Shown: in pieces, positions 43,552 through 60,347 of the stretch | How positions within the stretch are numbered: position 1 is the stretch's first letter | Layout of the letters: every line of letters starts with the position of its first letter | Assembly: GCA_963675785.1 (NCBI GenBank) | Contig: OY776562.1 | Coordinates: 2,080,001 to 2,144,000 of the forward strand | Length of the DNA: 64,000 bases | Origin: Anaerolineae bacterium | GTDB taxonomy: Bacteria > Chloroflexota > Anaerolineae > UBA1429 | Direction: 5' to 3' | Program-made: the position numbers and the translations under genes | Notes under the pieces: generated by a model | Database searches by the model: none | Told to the model about the DNA's origin: nothing | What the model saw: only the letters and a program-made list of their open reading frames with translations

Positions 43552-45585
43552 ATGCCCGTCGTTCCTTGGGAATGTGAAACAAATCCAGCCGATATGCACT
43601 GCAATCACATGGATCAATGGCAGATCGACTTGGCTGAACACAAAACCTCAGCCTTGTTAGTTGTGCGCCACAATCGTATCGTACACGAGTGGTACGCTCC
43701 CGAATGCGGCCCCGACGTGCCCCATTACACCGCTTCCCTAGCCAAAGCCCTGGTGGGAGGCACCTCCCTCGGCTTGGCGATAGCAGACGATCTCATCTCA
43801 CCAGACAACCTCGCTTGCCAATACATTCCGGCCTGGCGCGTTGATCCCCTCCGTTCCAAGATCACCATTGCGCAGTTGGCCAGTCATTCTTCTGGCCTGG
43901 AGGATGCCGAAACGCTAGGCAAGGGTCACATGGATCAGGACGGCTGGAAAGAAGCCTTTTGGAGGCGTGATCCCGATCCATTTACCATCGCCCGAGATCA
44001 GGCGCCAGTAAGCTTTGAGCCGGGCTCAGCTTACGCCTACAGCAACACGGGTATGGCCATGCTGGCCTATGCCGTAACAGCCTCCCTCCCCGCGAATCAA
44101 AGCATTCGTGAACTGCTCGAGGAGCGCCTGATGACACCGCTGGGTATCCCTCAGGAGAATTGGCAGATCGGCTACGGTACCACCTACGAAATCGACGGCC
44201 TGCGCCTCAATGCTAACTGGGGCGGTGGCAGCTACACTGCCCGAGCGGTGGCCCGTGTCGGACAATTGATGCTGGATCAGGGGCGTTGGGGAAACCAGCA
44301 GCTCATCTCGGCCGAAACTGTGCGACGTATGCTACGGTCCGTGGGCGCTCCTCGGCCGCCACGGGCAGAGGAACTACACATCCCCACACCGGGATTAGGC
44401 TGGTGGTTGAATATCGACGGCACTTGGCCTAACTTGCCACGCGACGCTTTTGCTGGTGCTGGCGCTGGCCAGCAGATTTTACTGGTGGTGCCCTCACTTG
44501 ATTTGGTAGTCGTGCGTTTGGGTGAGGCCTTTACTGGTGGGTTCCGTCATGATGCCTTTTGGCCCGATGTCAATCGCTATCTGATAGAACCTCTTCTCGA
44601 TTCGCTCAAGCCAGTGATGACACCAGTCGACAAGCTGCCCTACCCCGCTAGCCCAGTCATTCGCGGCATCAATTGGGCTCCCATCAACTCGATGGTGCGC
44701 CAGGCTTACGATAGCGACAACTGGCCCACCACCTGGGGCGACGATGATCGCATCTACACCGCTTATGGCGATGGCTGCGGCTTTGCACCTTATGTCGATC
44801 ACAAGATCGGGCTGGGCTTTGCCGCCATCTCGGGCACACCCGATAATCCCCTCGGTGAGAACATTCGCTCTGCCAGCGGCGAAAACGAGGGCATGGGGGC
44901 CAATGGCATCAAAGCTTCGGGCATAGTGATGATTGATGGCGTGCTCTACATGCTGGGGCGCAACGCTGGTAACGCTATCGTCGCCCGCTCTACCGACCAT
45001 GCGCGCACCTGGGAATGGGCAGACTGGCGTTTCGAGACGAGCTTTGGCTATCCGGGATTCGTCAATTTCGGGCGCAACTATGCCAGCGCCCGCGATGAAT
45101 ACGTCTATATCCATTCATCCGATGGCGATTCAGCTTATCTCCCCACTGACCAGATGGTGCTGGCGCGCGTACCTCGTGAACGCATCATAGAACAAGAAGC
45201 CTATACCTTTTGCGCCGGATTGAAGGATGGTCAACCACGGTGGTCCGCCGATATAGCCGAACGTGCGCCTATTTTTATCAATCCCGGCCGATGTAGCCGC
45301 TCTAGCATGGTTTACAACGTCGGCCTCGGGCGCTATTTATGGTGGCAGGTGCTTACCATCGGCCAAGAACCAGGGCCGCGATTTTGTGGTGGTTTTGCCG
45401 TGTATGACGCTCCCGAACCTTGGGGGCCTTGGACCACCGTCTATAGTGCTGACCAGTGGGATATAGGCCCTGGTGAGATGGGCGGCTTTCCTGCCCGCTG
45501 GATGAGCGAGGATGGCAGAGAATGCGCCTTGGTTTCCTCAGGCAATGATTACTTTAGCGTCAGAAAACTGCGCTTACTCTGTTAA
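43552..45585 (+). CDS. Serine hydrolase (beta-lactamase family) fused to a C-terminal DUF4185-like beta-rich domain
   Basis: SLAK (SxxK), HSSGL, YSN; the second domain starts near PYPASPVI..SDNWPTTW..YGDG..APEPWGPW. Confidence 0.75.
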   Translation: MPVVPWECETNPADMHCNHMDQWQIDLAEHKTSALLVVRHNRIVHEWYAPECGPDVPHYTASLAKALVGGTSLGLAIADDLISPDNLACQYIPAWRVDPLRSKITIAQLASHSSGLEDAETLGKGHMDQDGWKEAFWRRDPDPFTIARDQAPVSFEPGSAYAYSNTGMAMLAYAVTASLPANQSIRELLEERLMTPLGIPQENWQIGYGTTYEIDGLRLNANWGGGSYTARAVARVGQLMLDQGRWGNQQLISAETVRRMLRSVGAPRPPRAEELHIPTPGLGWWLNIDGTWPNLPRDAFAGAGAGQQILLVVPSLDLVVVRLGEAFTGGFRHDAFWPDVNRYLIEPLLDSLKPVMTPVDKLPYPASPVIRGINWAPINSMVRQAYDSDNWPTTWGDDDRIYTAYGDGCGFAPYVDHKIGLGFAAISGTPDNPLGENIRSASGENEGMGANGIKASGIVMIDGVLYMLGRNAGNAIVARSTDHARTWEWADWRFETSFGYPGFVNFGRNYASARDEYVYIHSSDGDSAYLPTDQMVLARVPRERIIEQEAYTFCAGLKDGQPRWSADIAERAPIFINPGRCSRSSMVYNVGLGRYLWWQVLTIGQEPGPRFCGGFAVYDAPEPWGPWTTVYSADQWDIGPGEMGGFPARWMSEDGRECALVSSGNDYFSVRKLRLLC

Positions 45586-46725: not shown

Positions 46726-47823
46726 CTACCCTTTGCGCACTGGCAGGGTTGAGCCGCAGCTCTGGCGTTGTATTACGCGCCCCCCCACATGCACCGTATC
46801 CACCTCTTGTTCCAAGAGCAACCCCTTAACTTGCCGGGCCACCGCAGTGGCTAAACCGTCCAAGTCAAAACGTACCGAAGTAATCGGTGTTGGAGCTACG
46901 CTGCACAAGTTATCATCACCCATGCCAACCACAGCCACATCGCGCGGACATGCCCGGCCAATGTTCGTCAATGCCGATATAACCTGCAACGCATAGATAT
47001 CATGCGAGCAAAAGACGGCTGTCGGCCCATCTTCACTGGCAAATAGCGTTTCCAGCCGACTAACAAAGGTCGAACTCCCCGGCTGGCCCGTAATCACCCA
47101 CTCGAGAGAGACGTCAGCACCGTGATCCCAGAGCGTGTTGGCATAGCCCCAATACCGCCTGTCGCCGGATACACTGGTTGGCTCTGCGCCAACATAAGCG
47201 ATCCTCCTGTGCCCCAAAGAAAGCAGGTGCGCAGTAATAGTAGCCGCGCAGATATCCTCATCCAATACGACAGCCGGCACATCAATACCGTCGATATCGC
47301 GCAGAATCAGGATAATCGGCAAAGGGCTTTGTTCCACAAGACCGCCAAATCGATCTGATAGTCCAGAACTCTCGCCCTGAACAAGTATCAAGGCGGCGAC
47401 ATGCTGCTCGGCAGCAGCGACGTACAGAGCGTCCTCCAGCTCGTCCCAGTTACCTTCCAATGTGCGCAACACCACTTGCAGATCCGCATCTCCCAGAGCA
47501 TGCATCATAGCCTGCAAGAGCCCAATGGGAAGTGCATCGAGGCGATCCGGCACCAATAAACTCACTGTCCCTGTTCGTGATCCAGACTGAGGATGTTCAG
47601 AAATGAACCACCCCAACCCATGGCGGCTAACCACAATGCCGTCATGTTTGAGTTCACGCAAGGCACGGCGCACTGTGATCTGGCTCACACCATAGGCATC
47701 ACAGAGTGCGTGTTCGCTCGGAAGTCTATCTCCCGCTTGCAAGCGACCAGATTCCACCTTGTCGGCAATGTCATCCGCAACCCAGCGATAGAGCGGACCA
47801 GAAGGCCGTTCGGTCATGACCAT
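46726..47823 (-). CDS. GntR wHTH + LacI-type sugar-binding domain regulator (AraR-like)
   Basis: RLPSEHAL..VSQITVRRAL..HGLG; HLLSLGHRRIA, PTAVFC, DVAVVGMGD. Confidence 0.9.
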   Translation of the reverse strand: MVMTERPSGPLYRWVADDIADKVESGRLQAGDRLPSEHALCDAYGVSQITVRRALRELKHDGIVVSRHGLGWFISEHPQSGSRTGTVSLLVPDRLDALPIGLLQAMMHALGDADLQVVLRTLEGNWDELEDALYVAAAEQHVAALILVQGESSGLSDRFGGLVEQSPLPIILILRDIDGIDVPAVVLDEDICAATITAHLLSLGHRRIAYVGAEPTSVSGDRRYWGYANTLWDHGADVSLEWVITGQPGSSTFVSRLETLFASEDGPTAVFCSHDIYALQVISALTNIGRACPRDVAVVGMGDDNLCSVAPTPITSVRFDLDGLATAVARQVKGLLLEQEVDTVHVGGRVIQRQSCGSTLPVRKG

Positions 47824-47866: not shown

Positions 47867-50164
47867 TTAATCCACACGCCCCTGACGTGCTGAGAACCAG
47901 CGATAATCAATGTTCAAAAAGACTTTGTCGAGTTCATATAGTTCTTCAACAAAACTCGTATCAATATCAGCATGCTCAACTGCATCAGCAAGCTGATTAA
48001 AGCGCACCACATGTGATTCGAACCGCTCTATAGCGTACTCTTTGGCCTGCCCAGTGGTGATCAAAAAAGGCCAGTCACTAGATTCGAGGAGCAACAATTC
48101 GCGTGCAGCCTGATCAAGCGCCCATCGCTCATCGCCTATCGCGTCAGGATGCTCGGCACAAAGCCGTTCCATCCTGGTTTCAGCCGCATGAATCGGCTCC
48201 CACACCCAATGTGTGTCGTCATTATCCCAGGTCCAATGGGTTCCGCCCGCTCCCCAGGAACTCTCAGGAAGCGCCATGACCTCTTCGGGCGGGTTGATCT
48301 CGAGATATTCGCTGGCCGTCACCAAGTCTACCTCGTCGTCCTCAGCCAGGTTTCGCAGAACCTCGCGAATCCAGGTAACACCCTCGAACCACCAGTGGCC
48401 AAAGAGCTCGGTATCATAGTTTGAAGCCACTAGACCATATTGACCAGTCTTTTCGTGATTTTCGACCAACAGCTCGTGCACAAGCGAAGCATAGTGTTTT
48501 GCGTGGCTTATTACCTTGTTCTCGGCCCAATCGGGGTGATACCAGTCTTTGGAACCCAATTCGGTACGGGGACCGGTAACGCGCCAGTACTGCAAACCCG
48601 ATTCAGGGTCTTTTTGATGGAATTCGCGATAATCCTGATCACCAGGATAGCCCCAATCCGCCGACCAAACTTGCTGACCCGTACGATTGTTGCGCCCAAT
48701 GGCTGCAACTGGCGGATCGACTAGCCCGTTGGTGTTGCCCATCACCCAATAGGCAGAGAAAGTGGTGCCACCACTGGTGTTGCTTTCAGCCATGGGTATA
48801 ACATAATGGCGCTTGATCATGCCATAGGGGCCAATGGCAGTTTCGCCGGCAGCCTTACCCACAGGCATACCACCCTCAATGGCGTGCGTCTCCACAAAGA
48901 AACAGGTAATACCTTGCGCCGAGAGAAACTCTTCGATGCCCGGGCGCACCGTACCGTCGTCATCCACAAAAGCTGGCCTATAGGCACATTCGGGCAGCCA
49001 GATGGCACGAGGTGCCTTGCCGAAATGACGCATATAGCTGGCAATTCCCGTACGAAGCTGGCCATAAATAGACGAATCGCGCCCCAGCAGCGGCAGATAG
49101 CCGTGGGTTGCCGCAGAACAAATGATCTCGATCAGCTCCTCATCCTGCAGTTGGCGGAATGCGCCGATCACATCGCTCTTGAAACGGTCCAAAAAGGCGT
49201 TATGTACCTTGCGGTAATAGTCACGATAAAAGGTGGCCAGATATTCGGCGTGCTCGTCACCCTCTTCGCCAAAGCGGGGGATATCTGCTTCGGCAGAAGC
49301 GATCTCTTGATCCAAATAGGTGACAAAATGGGCTTTGATGTCGGCATCGGCCAGTTGCTCGGTGAGAACCGGCGTAATGCCGATAGTCAAGCGAAAATCA
49401 ATACCCTCATCGCGAAGGTCATAGAGGGCCATAAGCAAGGGAATATACGTCTCGGCCAGGGCTTCGTGCAGCCACTCTTCTCCGTGGGGCCACATGCCCG
49501 CCCGTCGGCAATAAGGCAAATGGCTGTGCAGTACGAACGTAAACGCCCCTGCCGCCTGACCGGGGGTGTTGCGTGGTTTTAGGGCCTTGATCGGAGCCGG
49601 GACAATTGAATTGTTTGCAGACCGAAAAGCCCCCTGAACGAGCTGCTCTTTGAGATTCAGTGTCCACTCGATATCGATGCGAACACGTCCTGCAAGATGG
49701 CGCCAAACGGCATCCAGTGCCAAACCGGGCCCAGGCTGCGCCTGATAGGAGCGCGACATATGCTCAATGCGCACAAGTTCATCTTCTAGGTGCTCTAACC
49801 GGCGATCGAGGAGAGCAGCAAGTTCATCCTCAGGCAGCAAATCGATGAATGAGGCCGCCGCATCCTGAGGTACGCCTCCCAGCGCTGTTTCCTGCCAGGC
49901 ATCTCGCAGCAAATCCTGAAGAACCAGTCCACCCTGGTCAGTAATCTGATAAACATTGCGAGCTGGGCGGCCCTGTGCAGCCTCAACGCCAGACTTGACG
50001 ATCAGGCCTTCATCGGACATACGCGCCAATTGGGCATAGAGCGAGGCCGATGGCACGGTCGCCCAGTCACGGTAAGCATCGCTTTCCAGCGTTTTCTTGA
50101 TCTGGTATCCATACATCTCGCCCCGGGCTAGCAAACCTAGAATCAAAGTACGTACTTGCGACAT
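47867..50164 (-). CDS. Fusion of a PadR-family regulator and a GH57 1,4-alpha-glucan branching enzyme (DUF1957)
   Basis: N-terminus ILGLLARGEMYGYQIK..SLYAQL..RNVYQITDQG; C-terminus FVLHSHLPY, ATHGYLP, WLPECAY, YDTELFGHWWFEG, ESSDWPF. Confidence 0.88.
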   Translation of the reverse strand: MSQVRTLILGLLARGEMYGYQIKKTLESDAYRDWATVPSASLYAQLARMSDEGLIVKSGVEAAQGRPARNVYQITDQGGLVLQDLLRDAWQETALGGVPQDAAASFIDLLPEDELAALLDRRLEHLEDELVRIEHMSRSYQAQPGPGLALDAVWRHLAGRVRIDIEWTLNLKEQLVQGAFRSANNSIVPAPIKALKPRNTPGQAAGAFTFVLHSHLPYCRRAGMWPHGEEWLHEALAETYIPLLMALYDLRDEGIDFRLTIGITPVLTEQLADADIKAHFVTYLDQEIASAEADIPRFGEEGDEHAEYLATFYRDYYRKVHNAFLDRFKSDVIGAFRQLQDEELIEIICSAATHGYLPLLGRDSSIYGQLRTGIASYMRHFGKAPRAIWLPECAYRPAFVDDDGTVRPGIEEFLSAQGITCFFVETHAIEGGMPVGKAAGETAIGPYGMIKRHYVIPMAESNTSGGTTFSAYWVMGNTNGLVDPPVAAIGRNNRTGQQVWSADWGYPGDQDYREFHQKDPESGLQYWRVTGPRTELGSKDWYHPDWAENKVISHAKHYASLVHELLVENHEKTGQYGLVASNYDTELFGHWWFEGVTWIREVLRNLAEDDEVDLVTASEYLEINPPEEVMALPESSWGAGGTHWTWDNDDTHWVWEPIHAAETRMERLCAEHPDAIGDERWALDQAARELLLLESSDWPFLITTGQAKEYAIERFESHVVRFNQLADAVEHADIDTSFVEELYELDKVFLNIDYRWFSARQGRVD

Positions 50165-50178
50165 GAGCACTCCTTGCT

Positions 50179-50199
50179 AATAGTCCAAGTTAGACTATT
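50179..50199. promoter_or_regulatory. Palindromic operator candidate upstream of the PadR-GH57 RBS
   Basis: AATAGTC-caagtta-GACTATT. Confidence 0.6.
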
Positions 50200-50344
50200 T
50201 TAGGCCAGGCACTGTGCAATGACAAACCTCTGCGCGAGAACATGGCGCTATTCTACACAGTATTGTTGCATTCGTCCATGCCAATTTAACTTTTGTCCTT
50301 GATTCTGCCAACATGAAACACTATCCTCTCAAGAGGGAGAAGCT

Positions 50345-58796: not shown

Positions 58797-60347
58797 CTAT
58801 TGCAGGGGTTCCTCATACTCGATTTCGGCAGAGTCGGTGCCTGTGAGGGTAACATCAGGCGGCACCCAGCGACCGGTAAACTCAGCCAGATCGCGAATAG
58901 CCCGTTGCAGGCCCTCATTAAGTTGCCCGGCCTCAAAACGCCAAGCCCAATTGCCCTCTGGTTCTCCCGGTTTGTTCAAACGAGCCTCGGCACCCAGGCC
59001 AAACAGATCTTGCAACGGTGTGATAGCCATACTGGCAACTGACGTGTACACCAACCGCATCAGAGCCCACACCACACCATTGTTATCGCAGCCACCATAA
59101 ACACGTACCTTGTGCTGGGTAGCAGCATCCAGCTCGGAAAACCATCCGCGGGTTGTATCATTATCATGGGTGGCGGTATAGGCCACACAGTTCACAGGGT
59201 GATTGTGCGGCAGATGCGGGTCGGCCGAATCACCGTAAAAACCAAACTGTAACACACGCATACCTGGCAAGCCCAAGCTATCGCGCAGATCATGGACATC
59301 CTGAGAAATCAGGCCCAAATCCTCAGCGATGATGGGCAAATCACCAAGGTGTGCCTTTATCGCATCAAAGAGAGCCTTGCCCGGCCCTTTGACCCAGCGG
59401 CCATTGAGCGCTGTCTTTTCAGCAGCAGGAACCTGCCAATAGCCAGAAAACCCTCGGAAATGATCTAGTCGAACCTTATCAACGCGACGTAGCGTCTGCT
59501 CCAGCCGCATCAACCACCAGTCATAGCTGCGTTCTGCCATACGGTCCCAACGATAAAGAGGATTGCCCCACAACTGGCCCGTTGCTGCAAAACGATCGGG
59601 GGGCACACCAGCCACCACCGTGGGACGACCCGTCTCATCCAGATAAAAGAGGGATTGATTAGCCCAAACGTCCGAGCTCTCATGGCCCACAAAGATGGGA
59701 ATGTCGCCTATGATGCTAATTCCCCGCTCAGTAGCATAGTCATGCAAGGCCGTCCACTGCCGGTCAAACAGAAATTGCAAAAAACACTCGTAACCGATCT
59801 CATCAGCAAGTTTCTCACGCCAGTTCACCAAAGCAGCGGGATCATGTTGGGCCAGCTCAGTTGGCCACTCTGTCCAGTTTACCCACTGAAAATACCGTTC
59901 CGCAGCCATAAATAGGCAATAATCATCCAGCCAGGCAACTTCTCGTCTGATAAAAGCCTGCAGAGCGCCCTGCAGTGGATGGGCGGAATCCTTTGAAAAG
60001 GCCTGCCAGGCCTGGCGAAATAGCGCCGTTTTGGCTGGAATGACTGCGCTGTAATCTACCTGGCCAGAAGAAAAGTGTGGATAGGCCTCAAGATCGCCTT
60101 CCGTCAGCAAACCTTCTTCTAGCAAAAGCTGCGGGCTGATCAGGAGCCAGTTCCCAGCAAAAGCCGAAAAAGGTTGATAGGGAGAATTGCCATAGCCAGT
60201 AGGGCCCAAAGGGAGTATTTGCCACAATGTTTGCCCGGCATCAACAAGCCAATCGACAAACTCGAAAGCCTGCTGGCCGAGATCGCCAATACCGAATGGA
60301 CCGGGCAAACTGGTAGGGTGTAAGAGTATGCCGCACTGCCGATTCAT
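58797..60347 (-). CDS. malQ: 4-alpha-glucanotransferase (GH77)
   Basis: GILLHPTSLP, WQILPLGP, RLDHFRGF, IAEDLG, THDN; ATG 60347. Confidence 0.95.
   Translation of the reverse strand: MNRQCGILLHPTSLPGPFGIGDLGQQAFEFVDWLVDAGQTLWQILPLGPTGYGNSPYQPFSAFAGNWLLISPQLLLEEGLLTEGDLEAYPHFSSGQVDYSAVIPAKTALFRQAWQAFSKDSAHPLQGALQAFIRREVAWLDDYCLFMAAERYFQWVNWTEWPTELAQHDPAALVNWREKLADEIGYECFLQFLFDRQWTALHDYATERGISIIGDIPIFVGHESSDVWANQSLFYLDETGRPTVVAGVPPDRFAATGQLWGNPLYRWDRMAERSYDWWLMRLEQTLRRVDKVRLDHFRGFSGYWQVPAAEKTALNGRWVKGPGKALFDAIKAHLGDLPIIAEDLGLISQDVHDLRDSLGLPGMRVLQFGFYGDSADPHLPHNHPVNCVAYTATHDNDTTRGWFSELDAATQHKVRVYGGCDNNGVVWALMRLVYTSVASMAITPLQDLFGLGAEARLNKPGEPEGNWAWRFEAGQLNEGLQRAIRDLAEFTGRWVPPDVTLTGTDSAEIEYEEPLQ

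Follow-up and report, generated by a model that had tools for sequence, protein, structure and literature searches.

A PadR-type regulator module fused to a GH57 glycogen-branching enzyme in Anaerolineae, with a candidate operator at its own promoter

A 64-kb window of contig OY776562.1 from an Anaerolineae bacterium (genome G000) was analysed for a gene in which a PadR-type repressor module is joined to a glycogen-branching enzyme of glycoside hydrolase family 57 (GH57). The window is the whole stretch of DNA under study, and coordinates refer to it unless stated otherwise. A first-pass annotation made from the sequence had proposed one uninterrupted open reading frame (ORF) of 765 amino acids (aa) comprising PadR, linker and GH57. 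This ORF was confirmed with three Pfam domains. The features of the gene were:

47867..50164, minus strand: PadR-GH57 branching-enzyme fusion, single ORF of 765 aa plus stop codon (ORF, Pfam, unbroken frame in relatives and in contigs of public runs)
49610..50164, minus strand: PadR subfamily-1 module, residues 1-185, with a winged helix-turn-helix (wHTH) and a C-terminal domain of short a5 and long a6 and a7 (Pfam PF03551, Protein Data Bank (PDB) matches, AlphaFold2, Foldseek)
49550..49609, minus strand: Pro/Ala-rich linker, residues 186-205 (predicted local distance difference test (pLDDT), identity, start scan)
47870..49549, minus strand: GH57 branching-enzyme part, residues 206-765, with catalytic barrel and BE_C (Pfam, NCBIfam, PDB sequence and fold matches)
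50170..50175, minus strand: Shine-Dalgarno sequence AAGGAG, 5 nt before the ATG (sequence)

The longest frame at the locus in the ORF listing ran from 47867 to 50170 on the minus strand, with 767 aa and a GTG start. The ATG at 50164, located 3' of AAGGAG (50175-50170), gave the product of 765 aa. Pfam PadR (PF03551) matched residues 8-82 with an E-value of 1.1e-14 and 54.6 bits against a cut-off of 27. Glyco_hydro_57 (PF03065) matched residues 209-633 (E 1.5e-33, 116.8 bits) and BE_C (PF09210) residues 658-757 (E 4.7e-31, 107.6 bits), both above their cut-offs. The motifs HSHLPY, WLPE and YDTELFGHWW were all present as previously listed. In the AlphaFold2 model, the linker region had low pLDDT values, with means of 47 for residues 181-190 and 66 for residues 191-200 in blocks of ten and values below 50 for residues 184-189. 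ATG, GTG and TTG were all absent in frame from codons 149-206, and the final 75 nt before GAFTF contained nothing resembling a Shine-Dalgarno sequence, in line with the earlier statement that the linker carries neither an in-frame start nor a ribosome binding site. For these two reasons, the GH57 half in G000 seems to lack an obvious start that would serve it alone. Separate translation of GH57 from an internal start was considered for this genome and ruled out, as start codon and Shine-Dalgarno-like word were both missing.

Contigs from four public runs, belonging to three studies, covered the gene with zero insertions or deletions. The linker, for which read support had been called for, was bridged in all four runs, and one 11-kb contig covered the entire stretch. 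The runs differed from the window at 17 variable places. Only synonymous changes (four) fell in the PadR and linker part, and 15 of the 17 were synonymous overall. In a six-frame search of 41 relatives, residues 1-765 were found in one open frame in other genera at 53-64% identity. The first-pass annotation had named separate genes in relatives, together with a stop or frameshift in the reads, as the finding that would speak against a fusion; fused orthologues and indel-free contigs were found instead. That the fusion is an artefact of assembly or of a frameshift, or that the gene is decaying, is refuted by the independent assemblies and the conserved full-length orthologues, with both halves under purifying selection, and the probability of such an explanation is close to nil. 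The fusion is real and conserved.

The distribution of the fusion was determined in a census of 42 genomes from 24 genera of one Anaerolineae family. The fused gene was present in 19 genomes of 13 genera, with two copies in one genome and two genes cut by contig ends. A further 20 genomes from 8 genera held the GH57 part only, and three genomes from three genera had no match at E <= 1e-20. A class-wide search covered 401 genomes of 62 families, including one unpublished genome that was counted in this tally only. Of the 16 genomes sampled from the same family, seven had a match running from PadR into GH57. The other 61 families, with 385 genomes, had no such match among those listed; nine weak matches were unlisted. 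Among the best 120 public protein clusters, 47 comprised PadR, GH57 and BE_C, and four more were of equal length with no PadR hit recorded. These figures answer the question about the spread of the architecture that had been raised for this locus. Named public records came from Anaerolineae or Chloroflexi and carried only the names '1,4-alpha-glucan branching protein' or 'DUF1957 domain-containing protein'. Public annotation thereby overlooks the regulator half and names the proteins as enzymes only.

Several variants of the architecture were observed. Genome G045, with 9% contamination, contained two fused copies (G045:C31 and G045:C26, loci L023 and L046) that were 85% identical in the PadR part and 94% identical in the GH57 part. 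Each was followed by a GntR-type regulator. Shorter fused forms of 739-742 aa were L013 (G005) and the public proteins P0022, P0024 and P0036; L013 lacked about 34 residues from the pair of long helices that end the PadR module. In P0211, P0230 and P0239 (about 510-526 aa), relatives of this module were joined to DUF4388. The C-terminal extension of subfamily-1 PadR proteins is thus not confined to the GH57 case. A locus search with an alignment of seven PadR sequences gave 13 loci, three of them fused, two of which duplicated known upstream regions.

The GH57 half was compared with characterised branching enzymes. Residues 206-755 aligned end to end with the NCBIfam models of the Thermococcales and Thermus GH57 branching enzymes. 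The equivalog cut-offs of 1000 and 920 bits were not reached, the scores being 550 and 501 bits, respectively. Because both models are lineage-specific, these scores are no argument against the GH57 branching type. E392 of WLPE and D584 of YDTELFGHWW were invariant in 79 aligned sequences. The nucleophile of GH57 branching enzymes is a Glu in region III and the acid/base is an Asp in region IV, as described in PMC9291813. By fold, Foldseek matched 3n8t, 5wu7 and 3p0b/1ufa with TM-scores of 0.89-0.92 on the target and an E-value of about 1e-41, and the same structures were matched by sequence at 40-43% identity. With these enzymes, Thermococcus kodakarensis TK1436 (3N8T), Pyrococcus horikoshii 5WU7 and Thermus thermophilus TT1467 (3P0B/1UFA), the fusion shares the fold and the catalytic Glu and Asp, but it carries an additional N-terminal regulator and linker of 205 residues. 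A loop of similar length between the conserved regions III and IV, with low pLDDT at residues 437-448, aligned to the Thermus flexible loop (residues 229-247). The tyrosine at the Thermus loop tip, Tyr236, aligned to Ala439, and an invariant Tyr447 followed 8 residues on. 'True' branching activity has been linked to a flexible loop that spans about 17-22 residues and bears a tyrosine at its tip, and active enzymes with Ala at the tip are reported in the same source (PMC9291813).

Only one GH57 gene was present in the genome. A GH13 GlgB was not found in it: the CBM48 match was GlgX, and TIGR01515 scored below its cut-off on the same GlgX frame. Given the single GH57 gene and the missing GH13 GlgB, the fusion protein is the only recognisable glycogen-branching enzyme of the genome. 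GlgA-like, phosphorylase and MalQ genes were found. The malQ gene (GH77), earlier placed about 9 kb away, was located at 58920-60323, at a distance of 8.8 kb.

The PadR half showed the fold of a subfamily-1 regulator. The AlphaFold2 model of the fusion had a mean pLDDT of 86 and comprised helices at residues 3-13, 19-27, 39-51, 76-91, 98-104, 112-141 and 147-176 and strands at 55-58 and 71-74. Residues 1-176 were thus ordered a1-a2-a3-b1-b2-a4, followed by a short helix and two long helices. The topology of subfamily-1 PadR proteins is described with an identical order of elements (PMC5728393). Foldseek matched 5x11_D (Bacillus subtilis PadR on DNA) and 8jxk_D (Rv0047c) over 183-184 columns, and the PDB sequence matches of the PadR part also included 8jxk and 5x11. 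Residues Y20, Y43 and R69 aligned to Tyr20, Tyr42 and Lys67 of B. subtilis PadR, in a comparison with chain 5x11 at a 6-residue offset. These three B. subtilis residues are the canonical DNA-binding motif (PMC5728393). One other PadR gene was present in G000, which was small and PhaQ-like.

Among 20 fused orthologues, mean pairwise identity was highest for GH57 (72%), lower for the PadR part (37%) and lowest for the linker (22%). The ratio of nonsynonymous to synonymous substitution rates (dN/dS) was 0.11-0.33 for PadR versus 0.03-0.12 for GH57 in six pairs with dS <1 in both parts. By these values, the PadR half evolves faster than the GH57 half, yet not neutrally; neutral evolution, once named as a finding that would speak against a functional module, was thereby not observed. 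One polypeptide appears to combine a PadR-type repressor with a glycogen-branching enzyme, and the predicted DNA-binding domain and the intact active site occur together as in trigger enzymes.

The nearest relatives of the PadR part were free-standing PadR proteins with two domains and a length of about 180-200 aa, at 26-36% identity. The nearest free-standing PadR genes, from another family of the class, adjoined an acyl-CoA dehydrogenase gene in three of three loci, and the module was therefore not recruited from a glucan regulon. In a tree of the GH57 part, the family formed a supported clade (99). A single clade of all fused rows was not rejected by the approximately unbiased (AU) test (p 0.42). 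Adding the unfused L016 and L017 to the fused clade gave a likelihood above that of the free quick search, this group having been named post hoc with the tree already seen. The GH57 protein of L016 (G004:C192) started with MKEVRT-GLAGQ-GAFTF. Because the opening six residues are similar to those of fused proteins such as L005 (MREVRT), L016 gives the impression of having lost its PadR module by in-frame deletion. Outgroup enzymes began 3-4 residues before GAFTF.

Two further features were located upstream of the fusion gene:

50179..50199, no strand: palindrome AATAGTC-N7-GACTATT, 21 bp, candidate operator (sequence, second copy in the genome, counterparts in two genera)
50197..50225, minus strand: best sigma-70-like promoter, TTGTCA-17-TAAAAT, 10 of 12 positions (consensus match only)

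Read inward, the palindrome had 10-bp arms with one mismatch. At up to two mismatches it occurred once in the window, with 0.03 occurrences expected from shuffles. Its position directly upstream of the ribosome binding site had been recorded before and was retained, with the refinement that its left arm also overlaps the -10 hexamer TAAAAT (50202-50197). A protein on the palindrome would sit over both the -10 box and the predicted start site.

A genome scan gave a second perfect copy at C1:1190558, with 0.008 perfect copies expected per genome. The next 18 bp at this site were a copy with two mismatches that shared a half-site, resulting in a double site at C1:1190558-1190596 (locus L022, 4059-4097). 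The flanks of the two perfect copies were unrelated. The second site was located in a 760-bp gap between a gene for a 1130-aa zinc-ribbon Ser/Thr kinase with Ig-like/BACON domains (minus strand) and a tyrosine integrase gene (plus strand), 36-74 bp upstream of a sigma-70 promoter match of 12 of 12 positions facing the kinase gene. No Rfam family came close to its gathering score in this intergenic region. A ROK sugar kinase gene was observed 1.7 kb from the site.

The inverted repeat could instead act in the mRNA, as a 5' stem-loop beside the ribosome binding site that affects stability or translation. It can form a stem of about 9 bp ending 3 nt before the Shine-Dalgarno sequence, and GC-rich hairpins were present in the same region of some relatives. 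However, the 5' region folded no better than shuffles (z = -0.14), a transcript from the best promoter would begin inside the repeat, and the same arms occurred at an unrelated locus with a different spacer. At L003, the repeat ended 42 nt before the ATG yet began in the -10 box. An mRNA hairpin is accordingly considered very improbable.

The gene following the fusion gene was:

46726..47823, minus strand: regulator of 365 aa with a GntR wHTH (residues 11-74) and a LacI-type sugar-binding domain (Pfam, NCBIfam, synteny)

The regulator, which had been reported 43 bp downstream, was found at that distance, with its start at 47823 and no terminator-like site between it and the stop codon of the fusion gene. 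Owing to this short gap without a terminator-like site, the two genes are probably co-transcribed. A regulator of this type followed the GH57 gene in 14 of the 19 other fused loci, in 17 of the 19 unfused loci of the family and in none of seven loci from other families. It is an older partner of the enzyme gene and not a feature of the fusion. Its architecture is presumably that called AraR-type. It shares with AraR-type GntR regulators the GntR wHTH and the LacI/GalR-type sugar-binding domain; the difference is that it is here encoded by a neighbouring gene outside the fusion, beside fused and unfused GH57 genes alike. Elsewhere in the window, a plus-strand gene at 43552-45585 encoded a 677-aa protein with a beta-lactamase/transpeptidase-like domain (34-327) and a weak match to DUF4185 (476-646) below the cut-off.

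The palindrome was matched against the 150-nt upstream regions of 21 fused genes (20 genomic, one metagenomic), and the best match of each was scored. The own locus had 0 mismatches, L004 (genus g17) had 2 and L003 (genus g10) had 3, while all other fused loci had 4-7 and 26 unfused loci had 5-8. In 20000 random 150-nt genome windows, two contained a match with up to two mismatches and 63 a match with up to three. The palindromes of L004 and L003 started in the -10 box of a TTG(C/T)CA-16 promoter match. A degenerate consensus, derived from the same sites, was scanned across five genomes, and the L004 and L003 sites were the only zero-mismatch sites in their genomes (G016 and G009). At L009 (genus g2), a different 18-bp palindrome of 6-6-6 structure started 7 nt after the -10 box. 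B. subtilis PadR reads two 6-bp repeats spaced by 6 bp (PMC5728393). The 26 unfused loci had no AT-rich palindrome at the promoter. Unfused GH57 genes at L021, L030-L033 and L054-L060 showed a conserved promoter, TTGACG-N17-TGTGGTAAC/A, upstream, and some of these loci had a GC-rich leader hairpin, for example with 12-bp arms in L021. The overlap with the -10 box, the second copy in the genome and the counterparts in two genera agree with the first proposal of an operator of the gene itself. The palindrome behaves like a candidate operator of the fusion gene, and this assignment is supported.

Taken with the domain structure, the candidate operator points to autoregulation. It is judged rather probable that the protein dimerises through the C-terminal helices of its PadR module, binds the palindrome and thereby acts as repressor of its own two-gene operon, with the tethered GH57 domains branching glycogen at the same time. 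The PadR C-terminal helices would mediate dimerisation, and the dimer on the palindrome would block RNA polymerase. The result would be repression of the operon encoding the enzyme and the GntR/sugar-binding regulator.

Several observations weigh against repression of the own operon by the PadR module, the first being that the palindrome may belong to another regulator. It could be the operator of the downstream GntR/sugar-binding regulator, which would autoregulate the operon while the PadR module does something else. Operon-encoded repressors often autoregulate, this regulator is probably co-transcribed, and it is syntenic with GH57 in the numbers of fused and unfused family loci given above. 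Conversely, the 26 unfused loci lacked a related or AT-rich palindrome although 17 of the 19 family ones carry the regulator, and the motif was common to fused genera only. GntR-family operators are known for a GT...AC core, which the half-sites of L003 and L004 appear to lack. An operator of the GntR-type regulator is accordingly thought unlikely.

Other points concern the sites themselves. The promoter calls are consensus matches only, and the second palindrome copy, between the kinase and integrase genes, had no link to glucan metabolism. The scan of the genome found no copy with up to two mismatches near the GlgA-like, GlgX, phosphorylase or MalQ genes, and the storage-glucan regulon suggested by the first-pass annotation was not supported. 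In terms of the own pathway expected of a trigger enzyme, a candidate site was thus present at the own promoter and at none of these other genes. Conservation of the palindrome was partial: the promoters of two other genera had near-identical sites in the equivalent position, but a clear palindrome was found in only 4 of the 13 fused genera. In G021, similar palindromes, ATATTCCAATACGGAATAT and TTATTCTATTATAGAATAT, were located at L089 (G021:C246) and L093 (G021:C22), at position 1501 each. They lay at the promoters of two paralogous aldo-keto-reductase/4Fe-4S genes and not at the fused gene of this genome, and are probably the operator of another regulator. As these sites lie away from the fused gene, other regulators can apparently use such sites.

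The remaining points concern the contact residues. The six genomes of genus g3 (loci L010, L012, L024-L026 and L047) carried Y43E and R69H, and Y43 was replaced by Leu in L011 and by Trp in L014. No clear palindrome was found upstream of the g3 loci and L014, and L011 had a GC-rich one only. The wHTH of g3 nevertheless had a dN/dS of 0.09-0.19; the pair L011-L014, with dS above 1, was too diverged for dN/dS. Because the contact residues are lost and no clear palindrome is present, yet the wHTH is constrained, the module in g3 appears to have a role besides or instead of the palindrome site, for example dimerisation or another nucleic-acid target.

The PadR module could accordingly be mainly a dimerisation or scaffold domain of the enzyme, with specific DNA binding absent or incidental and the palindromes being unrelated promoter features. 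The loss of signature residues in g3, L011 and L014 from a module retained under purifying selection fits such a scaffold, as do the small number of genera with a clear palindrome and the 34-residue deletion in the C-terminal helices of G005 and several metagenomic forms. G000, by contrast, retains all three signature residues, its palindrome recurs at the -10 box across genera and occurs twice in the genome, and unfused GH57 enzymes of the same family function without the module. A scaffold function as the main role is regarded as improbable, and autoregulation through the palindrome remains the preferred reading for G000.

The signal that would release such a repressor is more speculative. 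When the GH57 domains engage bulky alpha-glucan, the tethered PadR dimer might be kept off the operator in a PutA-like manner, and enzyme synthesis would then rise with the substrate. Alternatively, the release signal could be a small molecule bound in the interdomain pocket, as is usual for PadR proteins. That the protein is a sensor of polymer status, in which engagement of GH57 on growing alpha-glucan pulls or sterically holds the PadR dimer off the operator, is a tentative suggestion and seems doubtful. The predicted interface between the GH57 and PadR parts had a score of 0.00 (mark 0.32), which is no evidence either way. If the suggestion held, transcription of branching enzyme and regulator would directly follow how much unbranched glucan is present. 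The protein would then be the first trigger enzyme of a glycoside hydrolase family and the first PadR with a whole enzyme as effector domain.

The two halves and the proposed logic have separate precedents. B. subtilis PadR (5X11), Mycobacterium tuberculosis Rv0047c (8JXK) and Vibrio cholerae AphA (1YG2) share the wHTH and the C-terminal domain of two long helices. Like these subfamily-1 repressors, the fusion has the three signature DNA-contact residues and a palindrome of 18-21 bp at the promoter that would be regulated. It differs from them in that identity in structural alignments is only 21-22%, an enzyme of 560 residues is covalently attached to the module, and no phenolic-acid or drug-efflux gene is involved. 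Autoregulation is known for PadR proteins and is described for LmrR (PMC4534193).

PutA, BirA and NadR are bifunctional enzyme-repressors known as trigger enzymes. They also combine a DNA-binding domain and a pathway enzyme in one polypeptide, and autoregulation is the logic proposed here as well. The fusion differs from them by using a PadR wHTH and a glycoside-hydrolase-family transferase that acts on a polymer. The first-pass annotation knew of no described example, and full-text literature searches found no paper on the PadR-GH57 architecture and none joining PadR or a glycoside hydrolase with the trigger-enzyme concept. In the main text of a 2021 survey of about 2500 GH57 branching-enzyme sequences, the words PadR, transcription and fused were absent. 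An enzyme-repressor fusion is of a known kind, and for the combination of PadR with GH57 no paper was found.

Work on GH57 branching enzymes has treated them as stand-alone catalysts, and to our knowledge the transcriptional control of glycogen genes outside model bacteria is largely unknown. With a conserved predicted repressor joined to the apparently sole branching enzyme, the fusion provides a directly testable case of an enzyme that may report on a storage polymer to its own promoter. The family also offers natural contrasts, comprising fused proteins with the contact residues, fused proteins without them and apparent in-frame reversions to the plain enzyme.

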